Positions 1,440 to 58,089 are shown, counted from the stretch's first letter. The stretch is 64,000 bases of DNA from Acidobacteriota bacterium (GCA_963663035.1 OY760074.1:1824001-1888000); one strand, 5' to 3'. Notes: generated by a model from the sequence alone, not told the origin. Made by a program: numbers and translations.

Positions 1440-1588
1440 AGCCCGCATTCTGCATAGGTTCTCGTAGCGAAGTGGCGCAAGCGCCGCAATGACAAGGCGT
1501 GTGAGGGGTACCCGCTTGCGGGTCGCACAACGCCGTCAGGGCGGATGATGGCGCCACTGTAGCAGAGAAGTTATGCAGAGTGCGGGCT
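1440..1588. repeat. Dispersed hairpin/MITE-like element, copy 1 (149 bp)
   Basis: Terminal inverted arms AGCCCGCATTCTGCATA / TATGCAGAGTGCGGGCT; core GGGGTACCCGCTTGCGGGTCG shared with five other copies. Confidence 0.85.
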
Positions 1589-1637
1589 TACGCCTCAGCT
1601 CTCATTGTCAGACACCGGACGTATTCTGACTAGAGGC

Positions 1638-2849
1638 ATGGACTTTACAACAATTATACTGATCATATTGGGGATTCTGTCTGCTCAGGCGCTTTTCTTT
1701 CTGGTCCTGAAGACCAAACTCCGAGAGCTTTTCAATTTCCTGGCCAACGAAGCTCTGGTCCGGAATAACCAGAATTTTGTGGAGATGGCCAGGGCAACGC
1801 TGGAGAAGTTTCAGACTCAAGCACAGGGCGACCTGGCCCTGAAGCAGCAAGCCATACAGGAACTGGTGAACCCCCTGAAGCAAGCCCTCGAAAAACATGA
1901 AAGCCATGTCGTGGAACTGGAGAAAAAGCGCGAACAGGCCTATGGGGGATTGCGCCAGTACCTGGAAGACGTCGTCCAGACCCAGAGCCAACTGCGAAAG
2001 GAAACCGGCAATCTGGCCAAGGCCTTACACACTTCCCACGTGCGAGGGAAATGGGGTGAAATGAGCCTGAAACGGGTTGTCGAAATGGCCGGTCTCCTCG
2101 AGCACTGCGATTTTGAGACTCAGCAATCGATAACTGGGGAGGATTCTCGTCTGAGACCGGACCTGATTGTCTATCTGCCCAACCAGCGCAAGATCGTGAT
2201 TGATGCCAAGACTCCCCTGGATTCCTATCTGAAGGCCATCGAGACGGAAGAGAAGGAAAAGCGAAACCAGCTCATGGCCGATCATTCCCGCCAACTGGAG
2301 CGACACATTTCTTTACTGGGAAGCAAAGCCTATTGGGATCAAGTGGACGGGAGTCCCGAGTTTGTGGTGCTCTATATTCCCCTGGAAAGTCTCTTTAGTG
2401 CAGCTCTTCACCATAATCCGGACCTTCTGGAAAAGAGCACCCGGAAAAAGGTCATCCTGGCGACTCCCACCACCTTGATGGCTCTGCTCAAAGCGGTCGA
2501 GTACGGGTGGAAGCAGGAAAAAATGGCTCACAACGCTGAAGAGATTTCGGCCATGGGAAAGGAACTCTATGACCGGCTGTTCAAGCTTGCCGATCACTTT
2601 TCCAGGCTCGGAACCAGTCTGGATCGAGCGGTTCAGGCCTATAACGAAACCGCCGGTTCGTTTGAGCAGCGCGTTTTCGTGCAGGCCCGGCGCTTTAAAG
2701 AGCTGGGCGTCCCCGCCAAAGAGGATATTTCCGAAATCCCCTGGATCGATCAAACTCCCCGCCAACTTCAGCGGAGTGAGCTCCTGGAGAAAGTGGAGCT
2801 GGAAGAGTTGGAGCTGGAGCAGGTGGAGGATGAGGAGGTCCTGGCCTAA
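1638..2849 (+). CDS. rmuC: DNA recombination protein RmuC
   Basis: N-terminal TM, coiled coil, RGKWGE, LRPDLIVYLP, IVIDAKTPL and ILATPTTLMALL motifs. Confidence 0.93.
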   Translation: MDFTTIILIILGILSAQALFFLVLKTKLRELFNFLANEALVRNNQNFVEMARATLEKFQTQAQGDLALKQQAIQELVNPLKQALEKHESHVVELEKKREQAYGGLRQYLEDVVQTQSQLRKETGNLAKALHTSHVRGKWGEMSLKRVVEMAGLLEHCDFETQQSITGEDSRLRPDLIVYLPNQRKIVIDAKTPLDSYLKAIETEEKEKRNQLMADHSRQLERHISLLGSKAYWDQVDGSPEFVVLYIPLESLFSAALHHNPDLLEKSTRKKVILATPTTLMALLKAVEYGWKQEKMAHNAEEISAMGKELYDRLFKLADHFSRLGTSLDRAVQAYNETAGSFEQRVFVQARRFKELGVPAKEDISEIPWIDQTPRQLQRSELLEKVELEELELEQVEDEEVLA

Positions 2850-2853
2850 AGAA

Positions 2854-2880
2854 GGAGACAGGAGTCAGGAGTCAGAAGCT
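2854..2880. repeat. Heptamer tandem tract (GGAGACA/GGAGTCA)
   Basis: ggagaca-ggagtca-ggagtca-gaagct immediately after the rmuC stop. Confidence 0.6.
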
Positions 2881-2934
2881 GAAATGAGTGAGAGTCACTA
2901 TTTCCTTAAAGTCCTGGTGCGTGTTTAAGGAGTT

Positions 2935-3009
2935 GGCCCGAGGGCTAAAGCCCACGGCTCTGACTGTCCCTCATAAGCTCCATCAGAGCCGCAGGCTAGC
3001 CTGCGGGCC
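2935..3009. repeat. Inverted pair of REP-like palindromes (AGAGCCG-GGGCT(TT)AGCC type)
   Basis: GGCCCGAGGGCTAAAGCCCACGGCTCTG...CAGAGCCGCAGGCTAGCCTGCGGGCC between convergent rmuC and xerD; same motif at 57885-57934. Confidence 0.7.
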
Positions 3010-3059
3010 TGGAACCTGACCGCTGACAACGGACCAACTTCCCCTCTCTTTCTCTCTCT

Positions 3060-3947
3060 TTACGCGCGCGGATGGTGCCGATCGTAGATCCGTTTGAGCC
3101 ACTCACGGTTCACGTGGGTGTAGATTTGGGTGGTGGAGATATCAGCATGACCCAGCATCATCTGAACGGCTCGCAAATCAGCACCATGTTCCAACAGGTG
3201 GGTGGCAAAGCTGTGCCTTAGCACGTGGGGGCTGATTTTCTTCTCAATGCCAATTTTCCTCCCGTATTTCCTCACCAACATCCAGAAGTATTGACGCGTC
3301 ATCGATTGCCCCTGCTGGGTCACGAACAAAAAGGGGCTGGCCTGACGCTTGCGTAAAAAATGCTGCCTGGACTCTCTCAAGTATCGTTGAACCCATCTCA
3401 AGGCCGAATCACCCAACGGAACAATGCGTTCCTTGGATCCTTTACCGAGTGTCCTCAGGCAGCCAACTTCAAAGTTGATCTCCTCCAACCGCAGTCCGAT
3501 CAGTTCGCTCACTCGTAAACCGGTCGCATAGAGCACTTCCAACATAGCCCGGTCACGCAGGCCGTAGGCCGTGGTCACGTCGGGCTGCTCGAGAAGCTGC
3601 TCGACCTCTTCCTCACTGAGATAGGTGGGTAGGGTCCGCCAGGTCTTTGGAGACTCCAGTGTTTCGGCCGGATCTTCCTTAAGATAGCCATCCAGGAGGA
3701 GAAAGCGGAAAAAAGAACGCAGGCTGGCTATCTTCCGCATCACGGAGCGAGCGGACATTCTTCCGGAAAGATGCTGGATGTAGTCGGCTAGTCCTTGCTT
3801 ACCGACATCTTTCAGCGGCCAGTTCCGGGAACTGACAAAGGAGAGAAATTCGCCAAGATCCCTTCGGTAGGCCTCGATTGTGTTGGAGGCCAGCCCTCTT
3901 TCCACCTGGAGATGATTCAGATAATTTCGAAAGGCTCGTTCCTGCAT
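3060..3947 (-). CDS. xerD: Site-specific tyrosine recombinase XerD
   Basis: RDRAMLEVLYATGLRVSEL, GKGSKERIVP, SPHVLRHSFATHLL, LGHADISTTQIYTHV. Confidence 0.95.
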   Translation of the reverse strand: MQERAFRNYLNHLQVERGLASNTIEAYRRDLGEFLSFVSSRNWPLKDVGKQGLADYIQHLSGRMSARSVMRKIASLRSFFRFLLLDGYLKEDPAETLESPKTWRTLPTYLSEEEVEQLLEQPDVTTAYGLRDRAMLEVLYATGLRVSELIGLRLEEINFEVGCLRTLGKGSKERIVPLGDSALRWVQRYLRESRQHFLRKRQASPFLFVTQQGQSMTRQYFWMLVRKYGRKIGIEKKISPHVLRHSFATHLLEHGADLRAVQMMLGHADISTTQIYTHVNREWLKRIYDRHHPRA

Positions 3948-3958
3948 AAGTGCCGCAT

Positions 3959-5545
3959 CTACGACTTCAGGCGACGGAAGAGATGTCGAATTTCCTCAAT
4001 GCGCAAGAGTTGGCAGAGTCCAAAATACACTGCCATTCCCACCAGGATACAGCTGGTCAAGGACAGTAATTCCTGGCTGAAACTCATCTCTCCCCAGCGC
4101 TCCTGGAAGAACCGGTTGAGAAGGTAGACAATCACTCCCATCACGCCTGCGGCAGCCACCGTTTTCAGGAAAGTGGGGATGACCCGGTAGGCTTGAAGCG
4201 ATCCCAGCCTCCGCTGGAAGCTCTTTGCCAACAAGATGCTGCTCACGGTGACGGACAAGGCCGTTCCAAAAGCCAATCCCACGTAGCGGTACTCCTGGGG
4301 AAGAATGAGAAAAACCAGAATGAGATTAATGGACAGGTTGCTGGCCGCCGCCATGAGACTGATTCGAAGCGGGGTACGGGTATCGTCCAGGGCATAGAAG
4401 GTCGGCACATAGACCTTGATGCAGCTGTAAGCGAACAGCCCAAATGAGTAGAAAATCACGGCATAGGCCGTATAGAGCGTGTCAGCTGGCCTGAACCCTC
4501 CTCTCTCGAAAAGCACACGGACAATCGGGACTGCCAGGACCATCAATCCGACCGAGGAGGGGATGGCCAGAATCGAAATGAGTTTAATCGAATTGGCCAC
4601 CGTCTCTTTCAAGTCCTCCCACTTCCCCTGAGTGGCAGAGAGTGAGACTTCTCGAAGATTGACCACACCCACCGCCACTCCGAACAGACCGATGGGCAAA
4701 TAGATGATCCGAAATGCATAGCTCAACCAGGAAACCGGACCATTTTCCTGAAGAAAGGAAGCAATCTGGGTGTTGACCAGGACGTTGATTTGAACCGCAC
4801 CCACCCCCACAAAGGCAGGCGCGATCAACCGAGCGATCTTGCGCACGCCCTCATGGGCCAGGTCAATGCGAAATTGGAAACGATAGCCGTGTCTGCGCAT
4901 GAGGGGCAGCTGGATGCCGTATTGAAGCACACCGCCCAAGAGCGCCCCCACGCCCATGGCATGAATCGGCAAGATGCCCCACTGCTCAAACTGGGGCGCC
5001 AGAAAGATTCCTGCCAAAATCACAGCTACGTTGAAAAACGCAGGAGCCAATGCCGGGATAAAAAAGTGATTGAGAGTGTTGAGGATAGCCATGCCCACGG
5101 AAGCCATGGCCACCAGCATCAAAAAGGGGGACAGAATCTTCAGAAGATCGGCAGTAATCTCTATCTTTCCCGGAACATCAGCAAAGCCGGCTGCCAGCAG
5201 GTACACAAACGGTTTGGAGAAAATCGATAGAGCAAGCGTGAAACCTCCCAAGAGGACCAGAAGTCCGCTCAAGACCAGGTTGGCTAACACCCAGGCTTCC
5301 GGTCGGCCTTTCTTGTGCAGAAACTCGGTAAAAGTGGGAACAACGGCAGCGCTGAGAGCCCCTTCGGCAAAGAGATCCCTCAAAAGATTGGGGATGCGGA
5401 AGGCCACCAGCCAGGCATCGTTGTAGAGTCCGGCCCCGAAGAGCTTGGCAAAGACCTGATCACGCACCAACCCCAGGATCCGACTGAGGAAAACCGCTAA
5501 GCTAACCTTCCCAGCAGCGCGAGCAGATCGAGCAGCTTGAGCCAT
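3959..5545 (-). CDS. murJ: Lipid II flippase MurJ
   Basis: SRILGLVRD, AFRIPNLLRDLFAEGA, FYALDDTRTP; multiple TM helices. Confidence 0.95.
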   Translation of the reverse strand: MAQAARSARAAGKVSLAVFLSRILGLVRDQVFAKLFGAGLYNDAWLVAFRIPNLLRDLFAEGALSAAVVPTFTEFLHKKGRPEAWVLANLVLSGLLVLLGGFTLALSIFSKPFVYLLAAGFADVPGKIEITADLLKILSPFLMLVAMASVGMAILNTLNHFFIPALAPAFFNVAVILAGIFLAPQFEQWGILPIHAMGVGALLGGVLQYGIQLPLMRRHGYRFQFRIDLAHEGVRKIARLIAPAFVGVGAVQINVLVNTQIASFLQENGPVSWLSYAFRIIYLPIGLFGVAVGVVNLREVSLSATQGKWEDLKETVANSIKLISILAIPSSVGLMVLAVPIVRVLFERGGFRPADTLYTAYAVIFYSFGLFAYSCIKVYVPTFYALDDTRTPLRISLMAAASNLSINLILVFLILPQEYRYVGLAFGTALSVTVSSILLAKSFQRRLGSLQAYRVIPTFLKTVAAAGVMGVIVYLLNRFFQERWGEMSFSQELLSLTSCILVGMAVYFGLCQLLRIEEIRHLFRRLKS

Positions 5546-5650
5546 GTTTTTGTGGAGGAAATCGTAATTCTGTTCCCGGCATTTCCCAACCCCTCCCGTG
5601 TCACGTTATCATTCTGACCTGAAATATTTCCGACAGGAGTCAAAAGAGGC

Positions 5651-6772: not shown

Positions 6773-8553
6773 CTATTCGGTGTGCCAGCGTGCCCTGACG
6801 ATCAGCGAGACGCTGTTGGAGACTCCACCTGTAGGAGGCGGAGTAAAAACCGTGATGGAAAGGGTTCGATCTCCAAAGATACCCACATACTGATCCGGAC
6901 CAGGGGAACGATAACGGTCTGGTAAAGCTCGCTCCACCATACTTGCCGGGATTGTGGCCTTGAGTTTCCGAGGACTCTCAAATGTTGTGGCCAGGGAAAT
7001 TCCTTCTAACTGCACAACTGACGTCCCCACAAAACCAGCTCCTTCGATCACCAGCTCGAAACTCCCGCTGCCCTCAACTGTCGAGTGGGGAGAAATTGCA
7101 CTGATCTTCGGCAGCGGGGTGGACATGGAGATGGAGACGGGCCTTGTGAACGTGGAAAACTCAGGATGGTATCCAAACTCCAGGAACTTCCCCCCTTTCA
7201 TCACCCGTTCAATCCTCTTGGTGTTGGCGATGTTATCCAAAGGGTTCGCCTCCAGCACCAGCAGATCGGCGAAGTTTCCCTCCTGGATCGAGCCGACCTT
7301 TTGGTTTCCTCGGGCTCCCTGGAAGCCAGCGAACATGTCCGCCGCCCAGGAAGTGGAGGCCTGAAGAGCCTGCAGGGGCGTTAAACCCGCCTCCACCAAA
7401 AGCTCCATCTCGTGATGCATGGCAAGTCCCGGGATGGCCACGCTGGAGGCGTCCGTGCCGGCAATGACCTTACCCCCAAGTTGAACATAGCGCTGGACAA
7501 ATCGCTGTACGTGTGCCGAGCACCCTGGAAAGTCTCCAGATCCCCCGCTGACAACTGAGCCACAAGCGGCAGGTGTTCGTAACGAGAGGAATAACCCTTG
7601 ATCTGCCGGTGGCGGTGCAGCAGCATTTCGGCAAGATTCTGGGGGAAGTAGGAAAGATCCGGGTTGCTCAACAAAAGGTAGCCTTCCTGCTCGCGCTGGA
7701 GGGCATTTGGGCTCAAGGAACCCCATTCGTAAACCAGGGTCGGATTCAGATAAACACCTCGAGCCACGGCCTTCCGGATCATCTCATCCAGCCGGTTTCC
7801 CGGTGTCAAGTAGCTGGCCCAGTGTAAGAATCTGCCCTGCTTGAAGTCCTCCAGTTCCTGTGGGGTCATCAAAGGAAAAGCAAAACCCCAAACATGTTCT
7901 GCCACGTCCAGTCCTGCCTCAATGGCCTGAGAAGCATCCTGGGTATGACTAAAGACCGCCAATCCTGCCCGATGGGCATCCTCCGCCCCCCACCCAAAGA
8001 CTTCCCGGTTATTCTCTATAAACTGTAGAAACCAGGCCACGTCCGGCTCTTTTTTCAAATACTCCTCAATGGTCTGCCCGACCTCTTCTCTGGTCATGGA
8101 AGGGGACAGGCCCGGGTGCCCCGCGGTGTGAAAGACGCGGGGAGTGCTCATGCTGGTTTGAGAGACAAGTCGTTCCTCCTGAGAGACATCCGCTTGAGCC
8201 AGGAGGGAGGTCACGCCGTGATTCATGTAGAGCTCGCCCATCCACTTGCTCCAGTGGACATGGGAGTCAATGAGGCCGGGAATAATAAACTTCCCTCTCA
8301 GGTCCAGGACGGTGACTCCAGCAGGGTAAGCGGAGTCTCCTCCAGAAAGAATGGATGTGATCTCATCTCCTTCAATGACCAGGACGGCATCGGAAAGAGG
8401 AGGATTGCCAAGCCCGTCAATAACCGTGGCTCCCCGGAGAACGATGACACTGCCTGCTGGGCGCTGAGGGTGAGCAATACCAGCGTGAAAGGTACTGATC
8501 AGCAAAGAAGTCAGTAGAAAAGGCAGGACTTTTGGTCTCCTGGATACCTTCAT
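6773..8553 (-). pseudogene. Secreted amidohydrolase with C-terminal IPT/TIG-like domain, split by a frameshift near 7515 (pseudogene or assembly error)
   Basis: N-half (PGLIDSHVH) in ORF 7381..8592 and C-half (IAGTDA, GSIQEGNFADLLVL, Ig-like tail) in ORF 6773..7726; one added base at CGG^CAC joins them. Confidence 0.8.
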
Positions 8554-16879: not shown

Positions 16880-17028
16880 AGCCGGGATAATGCATAAGTT
16901 TTCTACTGCAGTGCCGCAATCATCCACGCTGCCTGCGTTGTGCGACCCGCAAGCGGGTACCCCTTGCACGCCTTGTCATCGTGGCGCCTGCGGCACTTCG
17001 TCACGAAAACCTATGCATAATCCCGGCT
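16880..17028. repeat. Dispersed hairpin/MITE-like element, copy 2 (149 bp)
   Basis: Arms AGCCGGGATAATGCATA / TATGCATAATCCCGGCT; core CGACCCGCAAGCGGGTACCCC; right end overlaps the stop of 17027..18070. Confidence 0.85.
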
Positions 17029-40547: not shown

Positions 40548-41911
40548 GAGACCGGAAGGAGATGGAGGAAATATGTCGCTAATCCCAGGAAGGACAAAAA
40601 TCCAACTGCATCGGTAAAGGTCGTCACGAAAATACCCGAAGCGATCGCCGGGTCGATCTTCAAGTTCTTTAAAATCAGTGGGATCAGGGTTCCTACCACC
40701 CCGGCCAAGGCCACGTTAATAATCATCGCTCCCCCCAGGACCAGCCCCAGTATATAACTGCCCCTCCAGAGATAGGCCACCACACCGGCAAGGATGCCGG
40801 TCACAAGTCCATTGTTTATACCCACAAGAAGCTCCTTCAGGAGAATCGATTTCCCGCTCGCCCAGCTCACTTCTCCCAAAGCCATCCCACGCACCATGAC
40901 AGTCAAGGTTTGGGTCCCGGAATTCCCGCCCATACCGGCAACAACAGGCAAAAAGACTGCCAGAAACGAAAAGCGCGCGATGGTCGGTTCGTAGAGAGCA
41001 ACAACCGTGGCCGCAAGCAGTGCCGCAGCCAAATTCACCACCAACCAGGGAAGTCGTTTCCTCACTGAGGTCAGCGCGGGTGTATGAATGTGATCACTCG
41101 CCTCAATGCCCGCCAGATGGAAAATATCTTCCGTCGCCTCCTCTTCAATAACGTCGATGATGTCATCCACAGTAATAGTCCCGACCAGCTTGTTCTCGTA
41201 ATCCACGACCGGAATGGCTAACAAATCGTACAGAGCCACCTCACGGGCAACCTCTTCCTGGTCAGTCTCAGTGGTGACCGAGATGACATCGGTGGTCATG
41301 ATCTTCTTGAGAGGAGTGCTGGATGCAACGCTGAGAAGCTCACGCAGAGACGCCACACCGACCAGGTGATTTCGCTCATCGACAACATACAGATAAAAGA
41401 CCACCTCCAACTCCTGGGCGGTCTGAATGGTATGGATGGCTTCGCTGACGGAAAGGTCCTCACAGAGAGAAAACACATTGGGCGTCATGATTCGCCCGGC
41501 TGTTTCTTCTTCATAGAGGAGAAGATGTTGAACTTCAGTGGACTCCTCCACCCCCATTTGCTCCAGAATCTCCTGGGCAAACTCCTCGGGAAGGGCGGAA
41601 ATAAACACGGTGGCAGAGTCCGTTTCCAACCTCTGGAGCACCTTACCGATCTCCTCCCGGGGAATCTGTTTCAGGAGATCCAGACCTGGATCCACTCCCA
41701 AAATCTTCAGCGTCTCAGCTGCCAGTTGCCGATCACGTTGAACCAGGAGCGAGAAGACGGAGTTCTGCTCCCGCTCGCTTAATTCCAGCATGATGCTGGA
41801 GATATCACCCGGTCGCAGCTTGCTCAGGAGATTGGTCAGGTGACGGTCCGCACTTCTCCTGAGCAGTTTGCGAACCGACTTTCCCATGACATCCACTTTC
41901 TGAGCACGCAT
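40544..41911 (-). CDS. mgtE: Magnesium transporter MgtE
   Basis: CBS pair, TAGRIMT, RLPWL, GGNSGTQ, DPAIASG, TTFTD. Confidence 0.95.
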   Translation of the reverse strand: MRAQKVDVMGKSVRKLLRRSADRHLTNLLSKLRPGDISSIMLELSEREQNSVFSLLVQRDRQLAAETLKILGVDPGLDLLKQIPREEIGKVLQRLETDSATVFISALPEEFAQEILEQMGVEESTEVQHLLLYEEETAGRIMTPNVFSLCEDLSVSEAIHTIQTAQELEVVFYLYVVDERNHLVGVASLRELLSVASSTPLKKIMTTDVISVTTETDQEEVAREVALYDLLAIPVVDYENKLVGTITVDDIIDVIEEEATEDIFHLAGIEASDHIHTPALTSVRKRLPWLVVNLAAALLAATVVALYEPTIARFSFLAVFLPVVAGMGGNSGTQTLTVMVRGMALGEVSWASGKSILLKELLVGINNGLVTGILAGVVAYLWRGSYILGLVLGGAMIINVALAGVVGTLIPLILKNLKIDPAIASGIFVTTFTDAVGFLSFLGLATYFLHLLPVS

Positions 41912-41963
41912 GGATACTCCTCAGGAAAAGCACCACTGTAGAAAATGGGCCTCCCGGCAGGCT

Positions 41964-42158
41964 AGCCGGGAAAATGCATAGATTTTCTACTGCAGTGCCG
42001 CAATCAACCACGCTGACTGCGTTATACTTCCTTGGGCTCCTCGGCGTACCGTATGAGTACGCCTGCGGAACCCGACCCGCAAGCGGGTACCCCTCGCCTG
42101 CCTTGTCATCGCGGCGCCTGCTGCACTTCGTCACGAAAACCTATGCATTATCCCGGCT
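41964..42158. repeat. Dispersed hairpin/MITE-like element, copy 3 (195 bp)
   Basis: Arms AGCCGGGAAAATGCATAG / CTATGCATTATCCCGGCT; extra GGCGTAC...GTACGCC module; right end overlaps the pssA stop. Confidence 0.85.
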
Positions 42159-42973
42159 TAATCGAGATTGAGTTCTTCGGCGGCAAGTTCTTCGGATCGT
42201 AGACGATACTTCACGAACTGGTGGGCCCGGGAGAACAATCCGCTGCAAAGATAAGCAAGCGCAAGGATCATCAGGACCTGCTGCGAGTACCAGACCACCC
42301 CGGCCAGGAGCAGTGCAAAAAGCAGCACATTCAGGTGAGATTTTCCACGCCCCAGGTTCAGTTGAGTCAAGGAAGGATAACGAATTGTGCTGATCATTAG
42401 AAAGGAAATGAAATAAGTGATCCCCACCAGATAGTACGAAAACAACGGCGATGGGAGCGGCTCTCCAAAGAGATGGACTGTGGCAGCCACAAAACCAGCG
42501 CCGCCAGGAATGGGAAGTCCGGCAAAGTGCCTCAGATCCTTCATTTGGAGATTGAAACGTGCCAGACGCATGGCCCCACAGATAAGAAAAACAAAGGCAG
42601 AGAAACGTGCAAAATTGCCAAAGTCGGCTAAACCCCAGGAATAGATGAGAACGGCTGGAGCTATTCCAAAACTGATGACATCCGCCAGAGAATCCAGCTG
42701 CGACCCGAAATCGCTGGTCACATTGGCCATCCGTGCCACTCGTCCGTCCAAAAAGTCCAGGACCACTGCAATGCCAATGGCAACGGCCGCACTTTGATAT
42801 TCACCGCTTAAGGTTGAGGTGACGGCATAGAATCCTGCGAAGATGTTCCCTACCGTGAAAGCTGTCGGTAAGAGATACACACTCCGGCGAAGTTTTCGGG
42901 GCCGGTTAAGCACCCGCTTGGATTCTGTTCTCAACGGCTTCCTTTCCGTACCTGTCACGAATTCTCTTTCCAA
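42158..42973 (-). CDS. pssA: CDP-diacylglycerol--serine O-phosphatidyltransferase
   Basis: DFLDGRVAR...GSQLDSLADVISFG, RLARFN, FAGLPIP. Confidence 0.93.
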   Translation of the reverse strand: MEREFVTGTERKPLRTESKRVLNRPRKLRRSVYLLPTAFTVGNIFAGFYAVTSTLSGEYQSAAVAIGIAVVLDFLDGRVARMANVTSDFGSQLDSLADVISFGIAPAVLIYSWGLADFGNFARFSAFVFLICGAMRLARFNLQMKDLRHFAGLPIPGGAGFVAATVHLFGEPLPSPLFSYYLVGITYFISFLMISTIRYPSLTQLNLGRGKSHLNVLLFALLLAGVVWYSQQVLMILALAYLCSGLFSRAHQFVKYRLRSEELAAEELNLD

Positions 42974-43560
42974 TAGGCAATAATGGTGGATCCGCCGTAG
43001 ACTCGATCGCCCTTGTGGACAACGACCTCACATTCGGGGGGTAGAGCAATATCGACGCGACTCCCGAACCGGATCAACCCTATCTTATCACCTTTTTGGA
43101 CATGAGCTCCTTCCTGGCTCCAAACTCTGATCCGCCGAGCCAGCATTCCCGCGATCAAGGAAAAAGTCAGCTTCTGCTTGCCAGCAATGGTGATCGTCAT
43201 GTGCTCATTCTCCACCGAAGCGCGGTCGTCGTAGGCCAGCAGGAACTTCCCAGGCCGATAATCCTTCTTGATAATCGTCCCCTCCAGGGGCGCCCGGTTG
43301 ATGTGCACGTCCAGGAGGGAAAGAAAAATACTCAAGATCGTATCTTCACCCTTCTGAAGCAGGCGAACGACTTTCCCGTCGGCTGGACTCACGATGGCCC
43401 TGGGGTCCTCAGGAATGGACCTCTCCGGGTCTCGAAAGAAATAAACAACAAACAGGCAGAGGACAAAAAGCGCAAGAGCCACCCAGAGGAACCCGGCCCA
43501 GAAACAAAGGAATACCAGGGCAGCGAGAGGCGTCAAAAAATAGTAAGCGTCCTTAGCCAT
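42955..43560 (-). CDS. psd: Phosphatidylserine decarboxylase proenzyme
   Basis: FFRDPER, SPADGKV, DVHINRAP, IRFGSRVD. Confidence 0.93.
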   Translation of the reverse strand: MAKDAYYFLTPLAALVFLCFWAGFLWVALALFVLCLFVVYFFRDPERSIPEDPRAIVSPADGKVVRLLQKGEDTILSIFLSLLDVHINRAPLEGTIIKKDYRPGKFLLAYDDRASVENEHMTITIAGKQKLTFSLIAGMLARRIRVWSQEGAHVQKGDKIGLIRFGSRVDIALPPECEVVVHKGDRVYGGSTIIAYWKENS

Positions 43561-43572
43561 TGTTGGAGGCAG

Positions 43573-43618
43573 AAAAAAAGCCCGCTGCACGACTGGCTCC
43601 AAGCCTTGCAAGCGGGCT
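43573..43618 (-). terminator. Intrinsic terminator just upstream of psd
   Basis: Minus strand AGCCCGCTTGCA...TGCAGCGGGCT followed by a T run. Confidence 0.65.
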
Positions 43619-43645
43619 ACAAATGAACTTCACTCAATGTGGACT

Positions 43646-43858
43646 AGTCCGCATTATGCATAGGTTTTCGTAGCGAAGTGGCGCAAGCGCCACGCTGACA
43701 AGGAGCCCAAGGGGTACCCGCTTGCGGGTCGCACAACGCAGGCGTACTCTTGCAGTACGCCGAGGAGCCCAAGGGGTACCCGCTTGTGCGGGTCGCACAA
43801 CGCCGTCAGCGTGGATGATTGCGACACTGTAGCAGAAAATTTATGCATGATGCGGACT
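43646..43858. repeat. Dispersed hairpin/MITE-like element, copy 4 (213 bp, core duplicated)
   Basis: Arms AGTCCGCATTATGCATA / TATGCATGATGCGGACT; two GGAGCCCAAGGGGTACCCGCTTG cores; right end overlaps the stop of 43857..44087. Confidence 0.85.
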
Positions 43859-44087
43859 ACTCCTGGGCCTGGCCAGTTCGATAACGCTGAATCCGTACCT
43901 GCATCTGATCCTTCACTGCCAGCTTCTTCTTCTTGATGATGGTTTCCTCGAATCTGTCCGTCTCGTTGAGAAAAGATCTGCTCTGTAATTCCTGAAGTTG
44001 ATCTTCATAGCTCCGGTGTCGCTGCACCAGTTGACGGAATTCCTGGTCGTTGTTGAGCAGATAATCTTTGGTCTCCACCTCACTCAT
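43857..44087 (-). CDS. YdcH/DUF465-family small coiled-coil protein
   Basis: EFRQLVQRH...KKKKLAVKDQM; GAGG RBS. Confidence 0.8.
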   Translation of the reverse strand: MSEVETKDYLLNNDQEFRQLVQRHRSYEDQLQELQSRSFLNETDRFEETIIKKKKLAVKDQMQVRIQRYRTGQAQE

Positions 44088-44164
44088 ATTCAGTGGCCTC
44101 CTCTGAAAAATGGTTTGTTTGACTAACAGGTTTCGGTAGGTTGCAGTGCATCCTTATGCTCGTA

Positions 44165-46563: not shown

Positions 46564-47511
46564 TTATAAGGACTTGCTGCGACAAGTGTCAACGATCATC
46601 CGTTCCAGATGAAGCTTGGGATCGGTGCTCGTCGTCTTGCACAAGCGGTCAGTCTCACGGAGGCCAATCAGTATCTCCACCAGAATCTCATACGAATAGG
46701 CTCGGATTTCCCGCTCCTTGTCCTTGTAACTCCAGATTTTCAATTCAGGCAGGATGGAGCGAAAAGGTCGCCCGCCTTTTAACATCTCCTGGGCAACCAG
46801 GACTCGACGGAAATTCCAGTAGAGCATCGAGATGATCTGTGGAGCGGTCATCCCCGAGCCGCAAAGTCGATCCAGAATGCGCAGCGCTCCTTTCGAGTCA
46901 CGGCCGGCAATGGCATTGATCAGAGAGAAGACATCGTACTCTCGCGCTTGACGAGTCATCCGAAGCACCGAGTCGAGGGTGATCTTTCGACTCTCAAGAT
47001 CCCAGAGAAACTGTTTTTCAAGCTCGGACTCCAGCTGCTGATAATTCTCTCCTATGAGCTCCAGCAAAGCCTCTGCCGCACGAGGATCCATGTCATACCC
47101 CTCTCTCTTGGCCCTGCTCTTGACCCAGCCCAGGGGGTCCGTTTTTTCCGGCAGCTCTATGAGGGGAAGACTTGACCATGTCCGCGACCGCCTCCTGACC
47201 TCCATAACCAGGCTGGTACGAGAAGAAGGACTCTTCAAATACTCACTTAACTTCGCAGCTGCCAGATCCGCATTTCTCACGTAGATCCAGCGACGAGGTC
47301 CCATCCAGGGTAAGGTTCTTGCAGTGTTCAGCAGTTCCGCGACGGAATCCTTGTCAAGATCATAGACTCTCCAGTTGAAGGTTCGGAACTGTTCTTCGAC
47401 CTGACTGCGGCACAACTCGTACACTCTCTTCTTGAGGTAATCCTGGTCGGTGATCAGAAGATACACAGGCTCGGGAGATTGGATTGTCTTTTGGAACTTG
47501 GAAAAGTCCAT
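46564..47511 (-). CDS. holA: DNA polymerase III delta subunit
   Basis: PVYLL, TLPW, ESELEK; canonical leuS-lptE-holA-rpsT order. Confidence 0.88.
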   Translation of the reverse strand: MDFSKFQKTIQSPEPVYLLITDQDYLKKRVYELCRSQVEEQFRTFNWRVYDLDKDSVAELLNTARTLPWMGPRRWIYVRNADLAAAKLSEYLKSPSSRTSLVMEVRRRSRTWSSLPLIELPEKTDPLGWVKSRAKREGYDMDPRAAEALLELIGENYQQLESELEKQFLWDLESRKITLDSVLRMTRQAREYDVFSLINAIAGRDSKGALRILDRLCGSGMTAPQIISMLYWNFRRVLVAQEMLKGGRPFRSILPELKIWSYKDKEREIRAYSYEILVEILIGLRETDRLCKTTSTDPKLHLERMIVDTCRSKSL

Positions 47512-47531
47512 GACTGGCTTTAGCCCGGCTT

Positions 47532-47726
47532 AGCCCGCCTTTCTCACACCAGGTCTACTGCATCGGCGCAATGATCCGACCTGCCTGCGTTGCTCTCGGT
47601 CGGCCTCCTCAACGTACTCAAGAGTACGTTTGCGGGGGGTCGACCCGCAAGCGGGTACCCCTCGCGCGCCTTGCCAGGCCGGCCCTTTCGCCGCTTCGCG
47701 ACGACCCGGCGTGAGAAAGGCGGGCT
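47532..47726. repeat. Dispersed hairpin/MITE-like element, copy 5 (195 bp, variant arms)
   Basis: Arms AGCCCGCCTTTCTCAC / GTGAGAAAGGCGGGCT; core CGACCCGCAAGCGGGTACCCC; AACGTACTC-AA-GAGTACGTT module; overlaps the lptE stop. Confidence 0.85.
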
Positions 47727-52806: not shown

Positions 52807-53210
52807 GTGCCAAAGTAGCCAATTATTCCGAAAAAGACAGGGACGAGATCATTCGAGATTACTTTGGCCCGTCAGGAGCTGAAGAGAATCCCCGCTGTCC
52901 CATCTGTGGAGAAGTTCTTCGATTCGACACTCTCTATCAGTCCGGCGGCAGCAAGATCCAGATTCGGGTGAGTTGCCCCGACTGTCAAGCCCATTTCAGC
53001 TGGGAACAGGGCCAGCAGCAACAGCCCTGGAAATCACTCCACTTGCAGTACTTTCTAGAGCGTTACCTGACGAATGACCGCATTCGGTGCCCACTTGACG
53101 ACTGTTACGTGGTCTACACGGAGTTTAGCGACAGGGTGTTGGAATTTCGGTGTCCCTACTGCAACCATCGAGGCAGGGCTCAGCTGCCGGCCCCGACGGA
53201 TAGTTCCTAG
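52803..53210 (+). CDS. Double zinc-ribbon hypothetical protein
   Basis: CPIC, CPDC, CPLDDC and CPYC motifs; start overlaps the S2P stop (GTGA). Confidence 0.7.
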   Translation: MSAKVANYSEKDRDEIIRDYFGPSGAEENPRCPICGEVLRFDTLYQSGGSKIQIRVSCPDCQAHFSWEQGQQQQPWKSLHLQYFLERYLTNDRIRCPLDDCYVVYTEFSDRVLEFRCPYCNHRGRAQLPAPTDSS

Positions 53211-54691
53211 CCCTCAGGGGCTCCATCGAAGATCGCGAAGTACTCTCGAGTCCCCTCATCCTGGGGAGGCGCAGTCAGATACGTCACCCCTACCAGGACG
53301 ACCAAACCCAGCACGAGTGCGGGTAAACCAGACAAAAACCCAAACTTCCAGCTCTCCGGTAGCAGACCCAACTCTAAACCCCACAGGCACACCTGGGACG
53401 AAACGATCGACCAGATGGCCGCCTGAGAAGTACATCGTTTCCAGTAGAGTGCTGCCAGGGTTGGCACGACCATGCAGGCAAATCCAGCCAAGGCAAATTC
53501 GATGATGGTAATGATCCCTAAAGGATTGATGAAACCCAAAGCCAGGGCAATGATGGTCATCAGCAGGACGAGCCCTCGGCTGATTCGTACCATGGTCGCT
53601 TCGGTGGCGTCAGTGAGTCGTGTGCGGGAGAGGAAATCCCGTGCGATCATGGTGGTCACACTCAGCAACTGAGAGTCCATGGTGGACATCATGGCGGCAA
53701 AGGCCGCTGCTCCCAGAATCCCCATCATCCAGATGGGTGTCAGCTGTGTCAGAAGCATCGGTAGAATGGCGTCCGATTCGGCACCCTGCAAGTTGGGAAT
53801 GGCCGTACGGCCCCACATTCCAACCGTGGCCATCAAGAACATGATCACAAGAGAGGGCACAGGATAAATACACATGATCCGTTTCAGGGTCTTGGGATCT
53901 CTTCCTGTGAGGAGCCTCATGAAGAGCTGCGGGAAAACGATGGGAGACAAACCGACGATGATACCGTAGCTGAAAAACTGTCTCCAGGGCATCCTGGCGC
54001 GAGATATCAGTTCTGGATAGTCCTCCAGAACACGCCGGGTGGCCTCAGCGGGTCCCCCCAGCACTGAAGCGATCACGATAAAGATGGCCACACCCCCAAC
54101 CAGAAAAACGGCCGTTTGAAACGTGTTGACCCAGGCCGCACCGCGCATCCCGCCCAACAGAAGGTAAGTCAGCACTGCTGCTGCCACGACAGCCATACTG
54201 ATATTGAGCGTCACATAGCCCTCCGTCAAAGCCTCCAGCGTACGGCCTGCTCCCAGGAGACCGGTCATGAGATAGGGAACGGTGTACACGATCAGCATCA
54301 AACTGATTAGGAGGGCCAGAAAGGGGGATTTCCAGCGCCCGCCAACCACCTCAGCCACTGTCATGTAGCCGAATTTCTGGCCCAGGACCCAGGAACGGCT
54401 TCCGACCGTATAGAAGAGCAAGGGTGTAAGCCAGGCCCAGCTGGTGGCAAAGTAGGGCCACAAAACCCAGCCCGCATGGTAGGCCCCACCCGGAACCCCG
54501 GCCAGTGTCACCGCTGAAATATTGGCGCCGAAGACCGCAGAAAAAAGGACGAAGGTCTTAAAGCTGCGGCTGCCCATGTGAAAGTCCTCCATGGTAGCTC
54601 GACTGAAGCGAGCACTGTAGAGTCCAATGCCGACAATCACAGCCATGTAGGCAGCTAAGATGCTCAGAACCACCAGTACCTGTGTGCTCAT
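53207..54691 (-). CDS. Sodium:solute symporter family protein
   Basis: GGMRGAAWVN, AAMMSTMDSQLL, many TM helices; AGGGAGG RBS. Confidence 0.92.
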   Translation of the reverse strand: MSTQVLVVLSILAAYMAVIVGIGLYSARFSRATMEDFHMGSRSFKTFVLFSAVFGANISAVTLAGVPGGAYHAGWVLWPYFATSWAWLTPLLFYTVGSRSWVLGQKFGYMTVAEVVGGRWKSPFLALLISLMLIVYTVPYLMTGLLGAGRTLEALTEGYVTLNISMAVVAAAVLTYLLLGGMRGAAWVNTFQTAVFLVGGVAIFIVIASVLGGPAEATRRVLEDYPELISRARMPWRQFFSYGIIVGLSPIVFPQLFMRLLTGRDPKTLKRIMCIYPVPSLVIMFLMATVGMWGRTAIPNLQGAESDAILPMLLTQLTPIWMMGILGAAAFAAMMSTMDSQLLSVTTMIARDFLSRTRLTDATEATMVRISRGLVLLMTIIALALGFINPLGIITIIEFALAGFACMVVPTLAALYWKRCTSQAAIWSIVSSQVCLWGLELGLLPESWKFGFLSGLPALVLGLVVLVGVTYLTAPPQDEGTREYFAIFDGAPEG

Positions 54692-54701
54692 TGCTCCCTC
54701 C

Positions 54702-54926
54702 CTACTGGTCGTCCACCCAGATGTATTTAACGGTATAGAGAACCAGGAGGTAACCAACCACCCACATGCCAAACTGGTAGAGCATGGGAAGATTGAGCCA
54801 GCCAAACAAGACCATTGGCATCTCTTCTCCCCACCACCAGAGATCTACGCGGATTATCATGAGAATGATCGCCAACGAATAGATGACCAGTTCTCGTTTC
54901 CTGCGCCTTCGCGGGTCTAGTTTCAT
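54702..54926 (-). CDS. Small two-TM SSS partner protein (DUF3311-like)
   Basis: DLWWW...LFGWL pattern directly upstream of the SSS gene. Confidence 0.7.
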   Translation of the reverse strand: MKLDPRRRRKRELVIYSLAIILMIIRVDLWWWGEEMPMVLFGWLNLPMLYQFGMWVVGYLLVLYTVKYIWVDDQ

Positions 54927-55007
54927 CCCTTTTCCTCCTTCACTTTTTGCCTAGGCTACAACACGACCTGAACAGATAGCCAGCAAGAAATGCGGGACTG
55001 CTTGAGG

Positions 55008-55418
55008 TCAGCCTACTTTCTTGGCCTCAGGCTTGTTGAACAGGAGATTGTCCAGGGCAAGCTTCCCCGGGCCAGTGGCAGCCAACAAAAGGAAGATAAA
55101 GCAATACAAGACGGCCCTCTCTCCCGAGTTCATGACGGGCCAGAAGCCGCGGGGAAAGTGGGACATAAAATAGGCAACCGCCATCTCCCCGGCAAGAAGA
55201 AAGGCGACGGCGCGGGTAAAGAGGCCAAAGCCGATAAAGAGGGGGCCGAAAAACTCCAGTATTCCGGCAAACCAGAGCAGTGATAGGAAGGTCTGGGGTT
55301 CTCGACCAAAAAAACCAAACAGCTTTTCTCCCCCGTGCATCCAGAACACGAAGGCCGTCACAATGCGGAGAAGTGTTAAGGCCCAGACGCTGAGATCAGC
55401 ATGTATCGAGTGGAACAT
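55008..55418 (-). CDS. DoxX family membrane protein
   Basis: LLRIV, HGGEKLFG, GLFTR, GEMAVAYF, GPGKLALD. Confidence 0.9.
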   Translation of the reverse strand: MFHSIHADLSVWALTLLRIVTAFVFWMHGGEKLFGFFGREPQTFLSLLWFAGILEFFGPLFIGFGLFTRAVAFLLAGEMAVAYFMSHFPRGFWPVMNSGERAVLYCFIFLLLAATGPGKLALDNLLFNKPEAKKVG

Positions 55419-55430
55419 CGTTTTTTCCTT

Positions 55431-56033
55431 TCATTCGGGCCGGGTCACCACTTCCTTCAAATAGATGAAGTCCCCGAGACTCGAGGCATCGTCGTTGCCC
55501 GCGTTGGCCGCAACATGGAAAGCCACGGACGCCACAGAAAACTCTGGAGCAATCCATCGAAGGGTCCACGATATCTCATCCCGGGAGGAAGGAAGGCTGG
55601 CAACCTCAACATGGTGAGCGTACTGAATTTCCCCATCCTCTCCCTTCATGACGGCAACCAGCTCATCCACCGGCTGCAAGGATCCTGCCTGCCTGCCGTC
55701 CTGTGCTCCGCCGGTAAATCGCGTGGCCAGTTGAAAGCCACCTCTTCTCAAAGCGGGCCGTTTCAGGGTGATCCTAATCAGATATTGACTGTTCGGCTCA
55801 TAGAATTCGGGCAGACCGCGGATATTCAGGGACCCTTCCTGATCGTTGAGTGGGTGATCGAAATGGCACTGATGGCAACTCGAGTCACCGAAACCTCCTG
55901 TGTTTCCAGGTGGTGGCTTGTCCTGGTAAGCAGAAACAATGAGCGGGCTCGTGAACATCGCCACGGCTAAAGCAAGAAGTACTACGCCACCCAGGCTGAA
56001 GGTCACGGTGTTCCTATCTAATGCGAAACGCAC
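55431..56033 (-). CDS. Secreted Reeler-like domain protein with a CxxCH heme motif
   Basis: Signal/TM, TGGFGDSSCHQCH, GFQL, WIAP, AANAGNDD. Confidence 0.65.
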   Translation of the reverse strand: MRFALDRNTVTFSLGGVVLLALAVAMFTSPLIVSAYQDKPPPGNTGGFGDSSCHQCHFDHPLNDQEGSLNIRGLPEFYEPNSQYLIRITLKRPALRRGGFQLATRFTGGAQDGRQAGSLQPVDELVAVMKGEDGEIQYAHHVEVASLPSSRDEISWTLRWIAPEFSVASVAFHVAANAGNDDASSLGDFIYLKEVVTRPE

Positions 56034-56047
56034 ATTTCGAGGTTCAA

Positions 56048-56503
56048 CTATCTAGTCATAACTGCCAGAAAGAGGATCAGCAGAGCGACCGTGATCATGA
56101 TGAGAAGATACATCAGTTGTCGAAACCTGGACTTCTCCTGGAATTCTTCATGTTTTCTTTCCCAGTCGTCATCTCTCAGCTCCAATTCTAATTCCTCTGT
56201 ATCCAGCGCTCCTTCTGGGACCTGCAAATCACCGGAAATGCGCTGCCAATCGATAAATCGAGGAAGAAACCAGAAAAAAACCGCAACTCCAATGAAGAAA
56301 GGAAAAATCCAAAGATTGCTATCAGAGAGGGAGGAGATGACAAGAAGGACGAGTACGACTACAACCAGGAGGAGGAGCCGAAAGTAAGCCCAAGACACCG
56401 TCGGTCGAAAAACGGTCCCGCAACGCGGGCAACTCAGCCTCCCTGGTGTGTGCAGAGGATCGGTCCACAGACGAGTTTTACAAACTGGACAGGGCTGGGA
56501 CAT
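56048..56503 (-). CDS. Zinc-ribbon membrane protein (hypothetical)
   Basis: CPVC...CPRC followed by three TM helices. Confidence 0.65.
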   Translation of the reverse strand: MSQPCPVCKTRLWTDPLHTPGRLSCPRCGTVFRPTVSWAYFRLLLLVVVVLVLLVISSLSDSNLWIFPFFIGVAVFFWFLPRFIDWQRISGDLQVPEGALDTEELELELRDDDWERKHEEFQEKSRFRQLMYLLIMITVALLILFLAVMTR

Positions 56504-56520
56504 CAGTCGTGCCGATCAGA

Positions 56521-57708
56521 CTATTCCCTCACCGAAGGCAACTCCATGATAGAGGCTGCGACTACGGAAGCCACCTTCTTACGTAAGGAAACCACACCGC
56601 CCATTCCATCCGGATGCACCCGATTGGTGAAAAGGATGACAAAGACCTGGTTGGACGGATCAATCCATAACGAGGTTCCGGTGAATCCAGTGTGACCAAA
56701 GGATCCCACCGGAAAAAGATCGCCTCGAGGGCCACTGAAAGGCGTTCGAATATCGAATCCGATGCCACGCAAGTTGGTCGCTCCGATGGGAGACTGGGGG
56801 GTAGCCATCTTGTGAATGGCGAGGGGCGAAAGAATTCGCACTCCGTTATAGAGACCTTGGTTGAGAATCATCTGGGCATAGATTGCTGTCTCATCTACAG
56901 TGGAAAACAGCCCAGCATGTCCGGCAGCTCCTCCCATTCGAGCAGTGGTGGGGTCGTGGACAACTCCCCGCAGCAGCTGACCGTCTCTGTAATCGGTAGG
57001 AGCGATCAGATCTCGAAACTCTGGCGGTGGCAGAAAACGGGTTTTCATCATTCCCAAGGGGGAAAAGATCCGTTCCTCAGAAAACTCCTGCAGAGGCTTG
57101 CCGCTCACCTGACGAATCAGTTCGGCCAGAACAATGTAGTTGATGTCACTGTAGACAAACTCCTCACCCGGCGAAAAGATCAACTGCTCCTGAAACGCTT
57201 TCTCAATAGCGGTTTCATAGCCTTCCCAAGGCTCATCCAGGTCCAGATCGGGCCGCAGACCCGAATAGTGTGTCAGCAACTGCAGGAGCGTGATCGAACC
57301 TTTGCCATTCGCCTCGAAACCAGGCAAATAGGCCGATACTCGATCGGTTAAGGCGATCTTCCCTTCCTCTACTAAGATCAGAATCGAAGGCGCAGTGGCG
57401 ATCACCTTGGTCAAAGAGGCAATGTCGAAGATCGTGTCCACGGTCATGGGTTCCTTGGCAGGCACCAAGGATCTGTAGCCCAGAGCATTGCGATACACGA
57501 TCTTCCCCATGCGTGCGACCAGGACAACAGCTCCAGGAGTTTCCCCCTGGGTGATGGCTTCCTGAACCACTTCATCCAGTCGAGCCAGACGCTCACTGGA
57601 CATTCCCACTTCTTCAGGCTTGCCCGGCGTTAAGACCTGGCCCTGGACAGTGTTGAGGAAGATGAGAAGACTCAATCCTCTCCAAAACATCCGTTTTCTC
57701 TCATTCAT
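56521..57708 (-). CDS. Serine hydrolase, beta-lactamase/AmiE-like
   Basis: ASLTK, LLTHYSGL, YSD, GHAGLFS, GHTGFTG; signal peptide. Confidence 0.9.
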   Translation of the reverse strand: MNERKRMFWRGLSLLIFLNTVQGQVLTPGKPEEVGMSSERLARLDEVVQEAITQGETPGAVVLVARMGKIVYRNALGYRSLVPAKEPMTVDTIFDIASLTKVIATAPSILILVEEGKIALTDRVSAYLPGFEANGKGSITLLQLLTHYSGLRPDLDLDEPWEGYETAIEKAFQEQLIFSPGEEFVYSDINYIVLAELIRQVSGKPLQEFSEERIFSPLGMMKTRFLPPPEFRDLIAPTDYRDGQLLRGVVHDPTTARMGGAAGHAGLFSTVDETAIYAQMILNQGLYNGVRILSPLAIHKMATPQSPIGATNLRGIGFDIRTPFSGPRGDLFPVGSFGHTGFTGTSLWIDPSNQVFVILFTNRVHPDGMGGVVSLRKKVASVVAASIMELPSVRE

Positions 57709-57749
57709 CGCTCTCACAGGGTTCAATTGTATGTCAAAGGCAATTTCTT

Positions 57750-57797
57750 GGCGAGGGAGGGAGGGAGAAATGAGTCGTCTGGCCTCCCTCCCTCGCC
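57750..57797. repeat. Perfect 15-bp inverted repeat
   Basis: GGCGAGGGAGGGAGG-18 nt-CCTCCCTCCCTCGCC. Confidence 0.7.
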
Positions 57798-57831
57798 GCT
57801 TTGCCAACCCCATCAAGAACCGTTAGACTGA

Positions 57832-58089
57832 AGCCCGGATTATGCATAGGGTCTCGTCATGAAGCGGCGAAAGCGCCGGAAAACAGAGCCGTGGGCTTTA
57901 GCCCACGGGCCCGCAGGCTAAAGCCTGCGGCTCCGACTGGCGCGCGAGGGGTACCCGCCACGGGTCGGCCCCCGCAAACGTACTCTTGAGTACGTTGAGG
58001 AGCTGAGGGGTACCCGCTTGCGGGTCGCGCAACGCTGGCAGGGCGGATGATTTCGTCGCTGCAGTAGAGAATTTATGCATAATACGGGC
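57832..58089. repeat. Dispersed hairpin/MITE-like element, copy 6 (258 bp, nested REP pair)
   Basis: Arms GCCCGGATTATGCATA / TATGCATAATACGGGC; core GGGGTACCCGCTTGCGGGTCG; REP pair at 57885-57934. Confidence 0.85.

Follow-up and report, generated by a model that had tools for sequence, protein, structure and literature searches.

Dispersed hairpin repeats of an Acidobacteriota genome: a miniature inverted-repeat family tied to an IS1380-family insertion sequence

Six dispersed copies of a hairpin repeat lie in a 64,000-nucleotide (nt) stretch of an Acidobacteriota bacterium genome (the window; bases 1,824,001–1,888,000 of genome G000, one contig of 3,594,683 bp with 54.4% G+C). Their terminal arms differ in sequence from copy to copy yet pair within each copy, which raises the question of what kind of element they are; a reading made from the sequence alone had proposed either a family of miniature inverted-repeat transposable elements (MITEs) with subfamilies or a mobile structured RNA. 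In essence the repeats are nothing unusual: they form a MITE family linked to an insertion sequence (IS) of the IS1380 family. To this the present analysis adds that matching of the tips is copy-specific, Watson–Crick only, and confined to the terminal repeat, that the modules of the center are nested dispersed hairpins together with deletions, and that the core by which the copies are recognized is a secondary guest. As a whole, we consider it probable that the repeats are a MITE family moved in trans by an IS1380-family transposase, with tips homogenized at the DNA level and a center of inserted hairpins.

A repeat family with the ends of a resident insertion sequence

The window contains exactly six occurrences of the 21-nt core, CGACCCGCAAGCGGGTACCCC (at 1505, minus strand; 16943, plus; 42073, plus; 43711, minus; 47641, plus; and 58007, minus), with 0 occurrences expected by chance (100 dinucleotide shuffles of the window). 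Direct reading and a catalog made with hidden Markov model profiles of the arms both returned six copies with the boundaries and sizes first reported (149, 149, 195, 213, 195, and 258 bp), and the catalog contained no seventh copy in the window. The terminal arm sequences quoted earlier were likewise right when the six places were read directly, and the CGTAC..GTACG hairpin was found in all four longer copies.

Genome-wide, the exact core occurs 138 times in G000, blastn with the six window copies marked 245 intervals (39,570 bp in total), and profile searches with left and right arms yielded 180 paired elements and 30 solo arms. The paired elements hold 34,580 bp, ∼1% of the 3.59-Mb genome. 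They are non-coding and 149 to 262 bp long, with classes near 149, 177, 195, 200–213, and 255–262 bp, and each consists of long, imperfectly palindromic arms surrounding a mosaic center of GC-rich hairpins. Arms fall into four types (A, 64 copies; B, 31; C, 26; D, 41), with mixed arms in 18 copies. Four hairpins recur in the center: H1, the core; H2, CGTAC..GTACG; H3, CCGCAGGC-N4-GCCTGCGG; and H4, CCGTGGGC-N4-GCCCACGG. The features of the window are as follows (z, single-stranded DNA folding against 200 shuffles).

1440..1588, minus strand: MITE copy of 149 bp, arm type B, center of the core hairpin alone; z −6.4.
16880..17028, plus strand: MITE copy of 149 bp, arm type A, core alone; z −5.8; empty site in genomes G001, G003, and G004.
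41964..42158, plus strand: MITE copy of 195 bp, arm type A; CGTAC hairpin at 42043–42063 and one core to its right at 42073–42093.
43646..43858, minus strand: MITE copy of 213 bp, arm type B; core at 43711–43731, CGTAC hairpin at 43741–43761, longer-loop core variant at 43773–43795.
47532..47726, plus strand: MITE copy of 195 bp, arm type D, tips CCCGCCTTTCTCACACC; CGTAC hairpin at 47611–47630, core at 47641–47661.
57832..58089, minus strand: MITE copy of 258 bp, arms C/B; z −6.0.
Center of copy 57832, read on the plus strand: H4 at 57889–57908, H3 at 57911–57930, TGG-loop core variant at 57948–57967, CGTAC hairpin at 57977–57996, core at 58007–58027.
47521..47530, plus strand: abutted pair of MITE tips, TAGCCCGGCT, with no interior, directly upstream of copy 47532 (by direct reading).

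The abutted tips at 47521–47530 are possibly what remains of an element that formerly occupied this CTAG hot spot at a gene end. G001 carries TAGCCCGGATGAGGCTAG at this site, likewise a possible remnant. In the summed contigs of four public DNA runs from four studies, word depth was ∼400–2,500 on the MITEs and ∼10–40 on flanking genes (window 41702–42302, 43505–44105, 47111–47711, and 57328–58500), and contigs end at each MITE, which shows how abundantly the family is repeated in those communities.

The earlier statement that the window holds no cognate transposase is right: no IS1380-family match lies inside it, the nearest being ∼7.5 kb past its end. An element with matching termini is nevertheless resident elsewhere in G000. 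A search with the NCBIfam IS1380 model NF033539 gave 33 matches genome-wide; 30 score above the curated cut-off of 180, and the best reaches 399.9 bits. The transposase has 476 amino acids, and 27 IS copies are complete at both ends, near-identical, and with one exception 1,639 bp long (26 of the 27). Comparison of these copies places the ends at CTAG-CCCGGATTATTCATAAATTCT... and ...AACTTATGAATAATTGCGG-CTAG. Flanks of the complete copies are CTAG/CTAG in 24 cases and CTAA/CTAA, CTAG/TTAG, and TAAG/CTAG in one each, consistent with a true 4-bp duplication of a CTAG-like target. MITE tips share 20 of 21 nt with the left end of the IS (the type C tip, CCCGGATTATGCATAAATTCT, differs from it in one of 21 letters) and 16 of 21 with the right end (counted by eye), and the likeness ceases after ∼21 nt at both ends. 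The left and right ends of the IS are themselves unlike at tip positions 3–5 and 16–21.

In the ISfinder definition, IS1380-family elements have CC...GG ends and a 4–5 bp duplication, and the eukaryotic transposon piggyBac has CCC...GGG ends and duplicates TTAA. The resident IS shows the CC...GG ends, the 4-bp duplication, and the over-cut-off transposase of the family, and its palindromic 4-bp target (CTAG here) makes a close formal parallel to piggyBac. A first guess of an IS630/Tc1-type element with TA duplication was dropped, the resident IS being of the IS1380 family with CTAG duplications and one CTAA/CTAA. IS1380-like elements have been paired with piggyBac, as stated in the available part of one report (PMC5718144). 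The MITEs differ from both in being non-coding and in that the outer two flank letters often differ, against a simple 4-bp duplication.

Empty sites in relatives, for which a search had been proposed, were observed for three of the four window copies examined (16880, 43646, and 47532); depending on the copy, 3 to 5 genomes of sister species lack it at the corresponding position. At the site of 16880, G001, G003, and G004 are collinear on both sides and carry just ...GCGAG-CTAG-GGAAGG...; at that of 43646, G001, G003, G004, G005, and G006 have a single CTAG or TTAG; and at that of 47532, G001, G005, and G006 are empty. The fourth site, 41964, holds unrelated sequence and no MITE in G005 and G006. 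The empty sites indicate that the MITE is mobile, and together with the four arm types and the matching IS ends they support the earlier notion of a MITE family with subfamilies. At the place equivalent to 47532, G004 has an element with the same kind of tips (L021, G004:C226, ∼7971–8224; AGCCCGGATGATGCAG... and ...TTTCATAATCCGGGCT) and a different, partly N-masked palindromic interior (GGGAGGCACCTCAGGTGCC...), so that in relatives different cargo is carried by the same tips.

The proposed mechanism of movement is that an IS1380-family DDE transposase, acting in trans, would move MITEs into CTAG-like words. CTAG is strongly avoided in G000, with 2,882 observed against ∼13,821 expected (ratio 0.21); TTAG, CTAA, and TTAA have ratios of 0.31–0.45 and GATC of 1.74. 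Among the 180 elements, 76 lie directly against a TAG that ends an open frame of 100 codons or more (left side only, 40; right side only, 30; both, 6). In the window, the right-flank CTAG of copy 16880 contributes the TAG with which a 367-codon frame of the opposite strand ends, and that of copy 47532 is the stop of a 210-codon frame, also on the opposite strand. Such placement is what insertion into CTAG would give if insertions within genes were subsequently lost.

Copy-specific matching of the tips

Conservation of structure over sequence, as claimed by the sequence-only reading, was borne out. When 33 copies of the 149-nt class were aligned (A1; consensus fold of 38 pairs), 16 of the 38 pairs proved to stay paired through changes on both sides, and 95.5% of cells are paired as compared to 86.6 ± 0.5% with partners shuffled; in helix 1 (columns 2–17 with 138–153), pairing over the 33 copies reaches 96.5%. 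Covariation scored 0.237, as compared to 0.093 ± 0.007 with shuffled partners (0 of 500 shuffles as high) and 0.03–0.07 with slid partners, these two serving as the controls for statistics that ignore the tree. Double changes account for 97 cells and G-U pairs for ∼5 cells in the long-range helices. Much of the covariation in A1 falls between the four arm types, i.e., represents few events.

RNAalifold on linker-joined arms across all subfamilies gave a poor consensus and was replaced by A1 and by swapped-partner folding, in which the left arm of a copy was folded either with its own right arm or with a right arm borrowed from another copy of that type (2,000 permutations). Over the terminal 26 nt, the own partner was the more stable for every arm type (z −9.5 for A, 55 copies; −8.4 for B, 24; −5.0 for C, 19; −3.9 for D, 28), and 0 of 2,000 permutations was as good. 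Positions 27–62 exhibited no own-partner effect by the same within-type test (z −0.5 to −1.3), indicating that copy-specific matching within types stops after ∼26 nt.

Counted by cell over 126 copies and 24 tip positions, deviations were left-only in 122 cases, right-only in 87, double and non-compensated in 8, and compensated, i.e., identical on both sides, in 47, as compared to 5.98 ± 2.41 compensated cells expected under partner shuffling (maximum 16 in 2,000). The compensated cells are spread over 38 copies and represent 36 distinct variants, 27 of them seen in a single copy, and they lie mainly at positions 3–12, including positions 3–5, where the IS ends differ. The earlier claim that each arm pairs with its own other end thus stands as a statistical statement, by own against swapped partners and by compensated cells; pairing is not perfect, and just 24 of the 140 fully bounded copies are perfectly complementary over the first 15 nt. 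Hypermutable tips were considered and rejected, since per-site deviation is not generally above that of the inner arms, save in the type A left arm.

Tip symmetry appears to reflect DNA-level concerted evolution of the two inverted repeats and not a structured RNA. Near-perfect terminal repeats would be homogenized by intra-element gene conversion or by replication template switching in the fold-back (the quasipalindrome mechanism), a process that would be confined to the stretch over which the two arms are sufficiently alike. An alternative to conversion would be selection for a DNA substrate that folds back and so brings the termini of such a short element together. Quasipalindromes are well known as sites where template-switch mutations concentrate (PMC7202029, in the part available), and compensatory changes are described as common in the hairpins of REPINs (PMC3116915, likewise).

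Several observations weigh against a family moved by the resident IS1380-type transposase and homogenized at its tips. The flanks of the MITEs are not clean 4-bp duplications: over the 140 copies with both profile ends, the AG...CT next to the element is near-constant and the outer two letters vary (TTAG/CTAG 20, CTAG/CTAG 15, TAAG/CTAG 8, TTAG/CTTA 6, and others), with only the right-hand constancy free of bias, as the boundary rule forces AG on the left. Three readings of these flanks are decayed old duplications with stem-protected inner letters, piggyBac-like carry-over of donor flanks, and imprecise ends. Type D tips (CCCGCACTTCTCACACC, 41 copies) have no autonomous partner in G000, where none of the pairs among 133 tip matches encloses a transposase match. 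The putative link between MITE and transposase is drawn from similar ends and a common target, both of them comparisons of sequence. Most deviating tip cells (209 of 264) are one-sided, not compensated, and an inner helix at nt 33–38 covaries between arm types through three compensated pairs, which tip-limited conversion leaves unexplained.

The one-sided majority of deviating cells also suits the alternative that survives best, in which tips match through shared transposase fit and descent from symmetrical master copies with no active equalizing. Descent predicts the 9 of 36 compensated variants found in two or more copies, and the differences between A/B/C and D tips could reflect different transposases. 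However, the ends of the IS itself differ exactly where MITE tips covary (positions 3–5 and 16–21), so protein fit does not require symmetry there, and for protein binding a mutation at one end is not repaired by the same change at the other. Descent also sits poorly with 27 singletons among the 36 variants and with the excess of compensated cells over expectation. We regard shared fit and descent as unlikely, though still the most serious competitor.

A structured RNA, such as a stabilizer of mRNA 3′ ends, a terminator, or a processing site whose arms covary under selection for the RNA fold, is improbable. It would be in keeping with a long and stable hairpin (∼−67 to −75 kcal/mol with RNA parameters), with covariation above controls, and with the 76 of 180 copies that start at a gene's TAG stop and hence would be co-transcribed; CTAG targeting, however, accounts for the stop-codon position by itself. 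The Rfam search suggested earlier was run and matched no family: the window yielded 0 matches at the gathering score, and a relaxed run on 41900–43900 (E up to 10) gave only chance-level matches around the two copies there. The scarcity of G-U cells beside the 97 double changes argues in the same direction, as does a test on the co-transcribed strand of the 70 copies with a gene stop at one end only, where A-C mismatches exceed G-U (62 against 38) and an RNA fold predicts the reverse. Furthermore, the asymmetric center faces the upstream gene in either orientation without significant bias (46 left, 36 right), and sister species do well without the copies missing from their genomes. The option of a mobile structured RNA is not supported on these grounds of near-zero G-U, no strand effect, no orientation bias, and no Rfam match.

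Least probable of all, and only barely credible, is mobility as a single-stranded DNA hairpin by an HUH (RAYT/IS200-type) or Ssn-type nuclease, in the manner of REPINs or NTS/SRM repeats and with a secondary likeness to IS1380: a fold-back architecture with compensatory changes, as described for REPINs in the available part of PMC3116915, the free REPIN-like doublets of H3 and H4, and the two Y1_Tnp genes of G000 speak for it, but neither Y1_Tnp gene has any MITE hairpin within 900 bp, there is no small GIY-YIG gene in G000 (the sole GIY-YIG match lies in a 663-amino-acid frame), arms and core do not fit the SRM pattern HGTCWY-hairpin-RNCYNB (by eye, against the pattern in the available part of PMC11893778), and the tips share 20 of 21 nt with an IS end, along with the CTAG target. 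A Y1_Tnp (IS200/RAYT-type) gene at G000:C1:346384–346728 has a repeat of its own on either side (CCGGAGCCCCGAAGGGGCGACAGGAAATAGCCCAGGGC...) and constitutes a separate REP/RAYT-like system.

The mosaic center and the core in other phyla

In arm types A and B the stems of H2 read GGCGTAC/GTACGCC, whereas C and D have AACGTAC/GTACGTT. Each of the common architectures (1, 1-2-1, 2-1, 1-3-4, and 1-2-1-3-4, by hairpin number) occurs with all four arm types. H1 and H2 are essentially confined to MITEs in G000; of 235 loose matches to H1, 232 lie inside, and a diverged MITE accounts for one of the remaining three. Outside MITEs, H3 has 23 copies and H4 has 34, mostly as free ∼100-bp inverted REPIN-like doublets. 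These doublets have a spacer of ∼30 nt, CTCTGAC...CAGAG (e.g., C1:2440279–2440400, 271779–271850, and 468928–469000, outside the window), and no RAYT was found beside them when the two Y1_Tnp genes of G000 were checked.

MITEs of four sister-genus genomes (G009, G010, G013, and G014) are 177 nt long and have H2 but no core, and those of the more distant relatives G025 and G028 also lack it. Near-isogenic forms within G000 exhibit the replacement by the core of 4–6-nt linkers on either side of the CGTAC hairpin. For type B, form 2 reads ...GTTGTGT-TTCC-TTGCGCTCC...GGGGCGC-TTCG-TCACACGCC...; in form 2-1 the TTCG is replaced (...GGGGCGC-[20-nt core]-TCACACGCC...), and in form 1-2-1 the left linker as well (...GTTGTGC-[core]-TTGCGCTCC...). 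For types C and D, the linkers replaced are TCGGTC and TCCGTC. Because sister-genus MITEs are core-less and the three forms differ exactly by the change from linker to core, the core is, as judged from these comparisons, a later guest in the MITE and the CGTAC hairpin the older part. Copy 41964 of the window, with its left linker TTCC still without a core and a core on the right, reads as an intermediate. The earlier description of longer copies as adding a module is correct in that modules do add up; the added part is the core, however, the CGTAC hairpin being older. In 9 of 11 close pairs, direct core copies lie 62 nt apart, and the 149-nt form (one core, no H2) would most simply derive from deletion between two such copies. 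Size classes would then result from small hairpin repeats inserted independently into the center together with deletion between direct cores.

The 20-nt core is by no means limited to this genome. A scan for the exact 20-mer with one genome per species gave at least 99 loci, of which 80 were examined. These comprise 13 in Acidobacteriota/Acidobacteria, 1 in Bryobacteraceae, 27 in Planctomycetota groups, 16 in Chloroflexota groups, 13 in Syntrophus, Syntrophorhabdales, or "delta proteobacterium" genomes, 3 in candidate phyla radiation (CPR) bacteria, 3 in unnamed organisms, and one each in Verrucomicrobiaceae, WOR-3, Thermosynechococcaceae, and Thermaceae. The core is enclosed by IS1380-type tips at 9 of the 13 Acidobacteriota loci and, among unnamed organisms, at 2 of 3. 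No other group represented in these 80 loci has them, one match to the tip pattern at a Saccharibacteria locus being taken as chance. Allowing up to one mismatch, the core has 56 copies in a metagenome-assembled genome (MAG) of Gemmataceae, 6 in a cyanobacterial MAG, and 1–4 in CPR genomes of 0.7–0.8 Mb, with 0 for the reversed-pattern control. In the Gemmataceae MAG, the 33 matches to the inner 13-mer nearly all lie within a full or near-full 20-mer, consistent with the whole 20-mer being the unit. Outside Acidobacteriota, C precedes the core in 56 of 79 contexts and G follows it in 71 of 79; the consensus, of 20–22 nt, is C-GACCCGCAAGCGGGTACCCC-G.

The core is also present within genes, essential ones included. 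In a NifS-like gene of two Saccharibacteria, the core lies in frame at the same site (...A(K/Q)-RPASGYP-EI...), where nine relatives have two codons (CCN-RAY), so that 21 nt stand in place of 6, a net gain of 15; the two genes are ∼70–80% identical around the insert and 20/20 within it. In the leucyl-tRNA synthetase gene of a cyanobacterial MAG, the core is again in frame with a net gain of 15 nt and is absent from five relatives. The core would tolerate translation, all six of its frames being open.

Outside Acidobacteriota, complementarity of the sequences flanking the core was not convincing (2.91 of 8 positions, as compared to 2.70 ± 0.13 in the control), and the idea that the core always inserts into hairpin loops was dropped as unsupported by these values. 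Among viral contigs the 20-mer was seen once, in a 2.4-kb contig, and our literature search found no paper carrying the letters of the core. In six loci from Chloroflexota and Dehalococcoidia MAGs (L051, L065, L074, L075, L097, and L098), the core lies within a host-specific repeat that starts TGTCATTCTGAAC-TTGA-TTCAGAATCTC; by eye, this repeat fits the hairpin pattern of the NTS/SRM repeats of Ssn nucleases as given in the available part of PMC11893778, which suggests that the core is nested in SRM-like repeats there. In a Planctomycetia MAG (L050, L054, L067, and L108), half-sites of the core stand in tandem, with GACCCGC two to three times before and GGGTACCCC/GGTAGCCC two to four times after, in arrays that sit in GTAG-headed palindromes (GTAGGCCGGAACAAGC...) and look like a local expansion of the core arms.

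One explanation for this distribution, to which we give even weight for and against, is that the core is a tiny insertion module foreign to the MITE, spreading across phyla, overwriting 4–6 nt without duplication, and amplified by the MITE as its vehicle to more than 230 copies.

Known systems and implications

Correia/NEMIS and Nezha are examples of bacterial MITEs with a cognate IS. Like these, the repeats described here are small and non-coding, are present in many dispersed copies, and combine terminal inverted repeats whose ends are common with an autonomous IS (type D excepted) with a preferred short target and presence/absence polymorphism of insertions. They depart from the usual bacterial MITE in their IS1380-family partner and in a center that is a mosaic of separately dispersed hairpins. 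A literature search by title alone found no paper title joining IS1380 with miniature inverted-repeat.

The BIMEs and ERIC/IRU elements of enterobacteria are imperfect palindromes of combinable modules, with size classes from internal insertions, and are not known to have a DDE partner with matching ends; the MITE resembles them in anatomy, as a modular imperfect palindrome. REPINs are hairpin doublets with common compensatory changes (Bertels and Rainey 2011, PMC3116915, in the part available), and the free H3/H4 doublets look alike. In contrast to REPINs, no RAYT flanked by MITE hairpins was found in G000, and the MITE tips belong to a DDE element. The core is reminiscent of NTS/SRM hairpins, as far as described in the available part of Chenal et al. 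(2025, PMC11893778), in being a very small, dispersed, and nested GC hairpin with a CCCGC/GCGGG stem as in the Neisseria NTS, and differs in having no GTCWY head and in the lack of a small GIY-YIG gene in G000. SDR elements (Elhai et al. 2008), compared here by their description in a citing paper, are likewise very small, dispersed, and nested, but are reported in its available part from Nostocaceae only (PMC5861425), unlike a 20-mer that is identical across many phyla.

For annotation, the MITE is useful in that it accounts for ∼1% of the genome, for many gene-end "hairpins," and for TAG stops supplied by the CTAG target. Copy-specific matching of tips at positions where the IS ends differ constitutes a clean natural data set on how the inverted repeats of short transposons stay alike, and the choice between conversion or template switching and selection for fold-back bears on how elements below the persistence length of DNA bring their ends together. 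If 20-nt modules are truly mobile, they would add a further tier of parasitism, in which the guest exploits an element that is itself non-autonomous, and the MITE as vehicle would let the core reach hundreds of copies without machinery of its own in the host.

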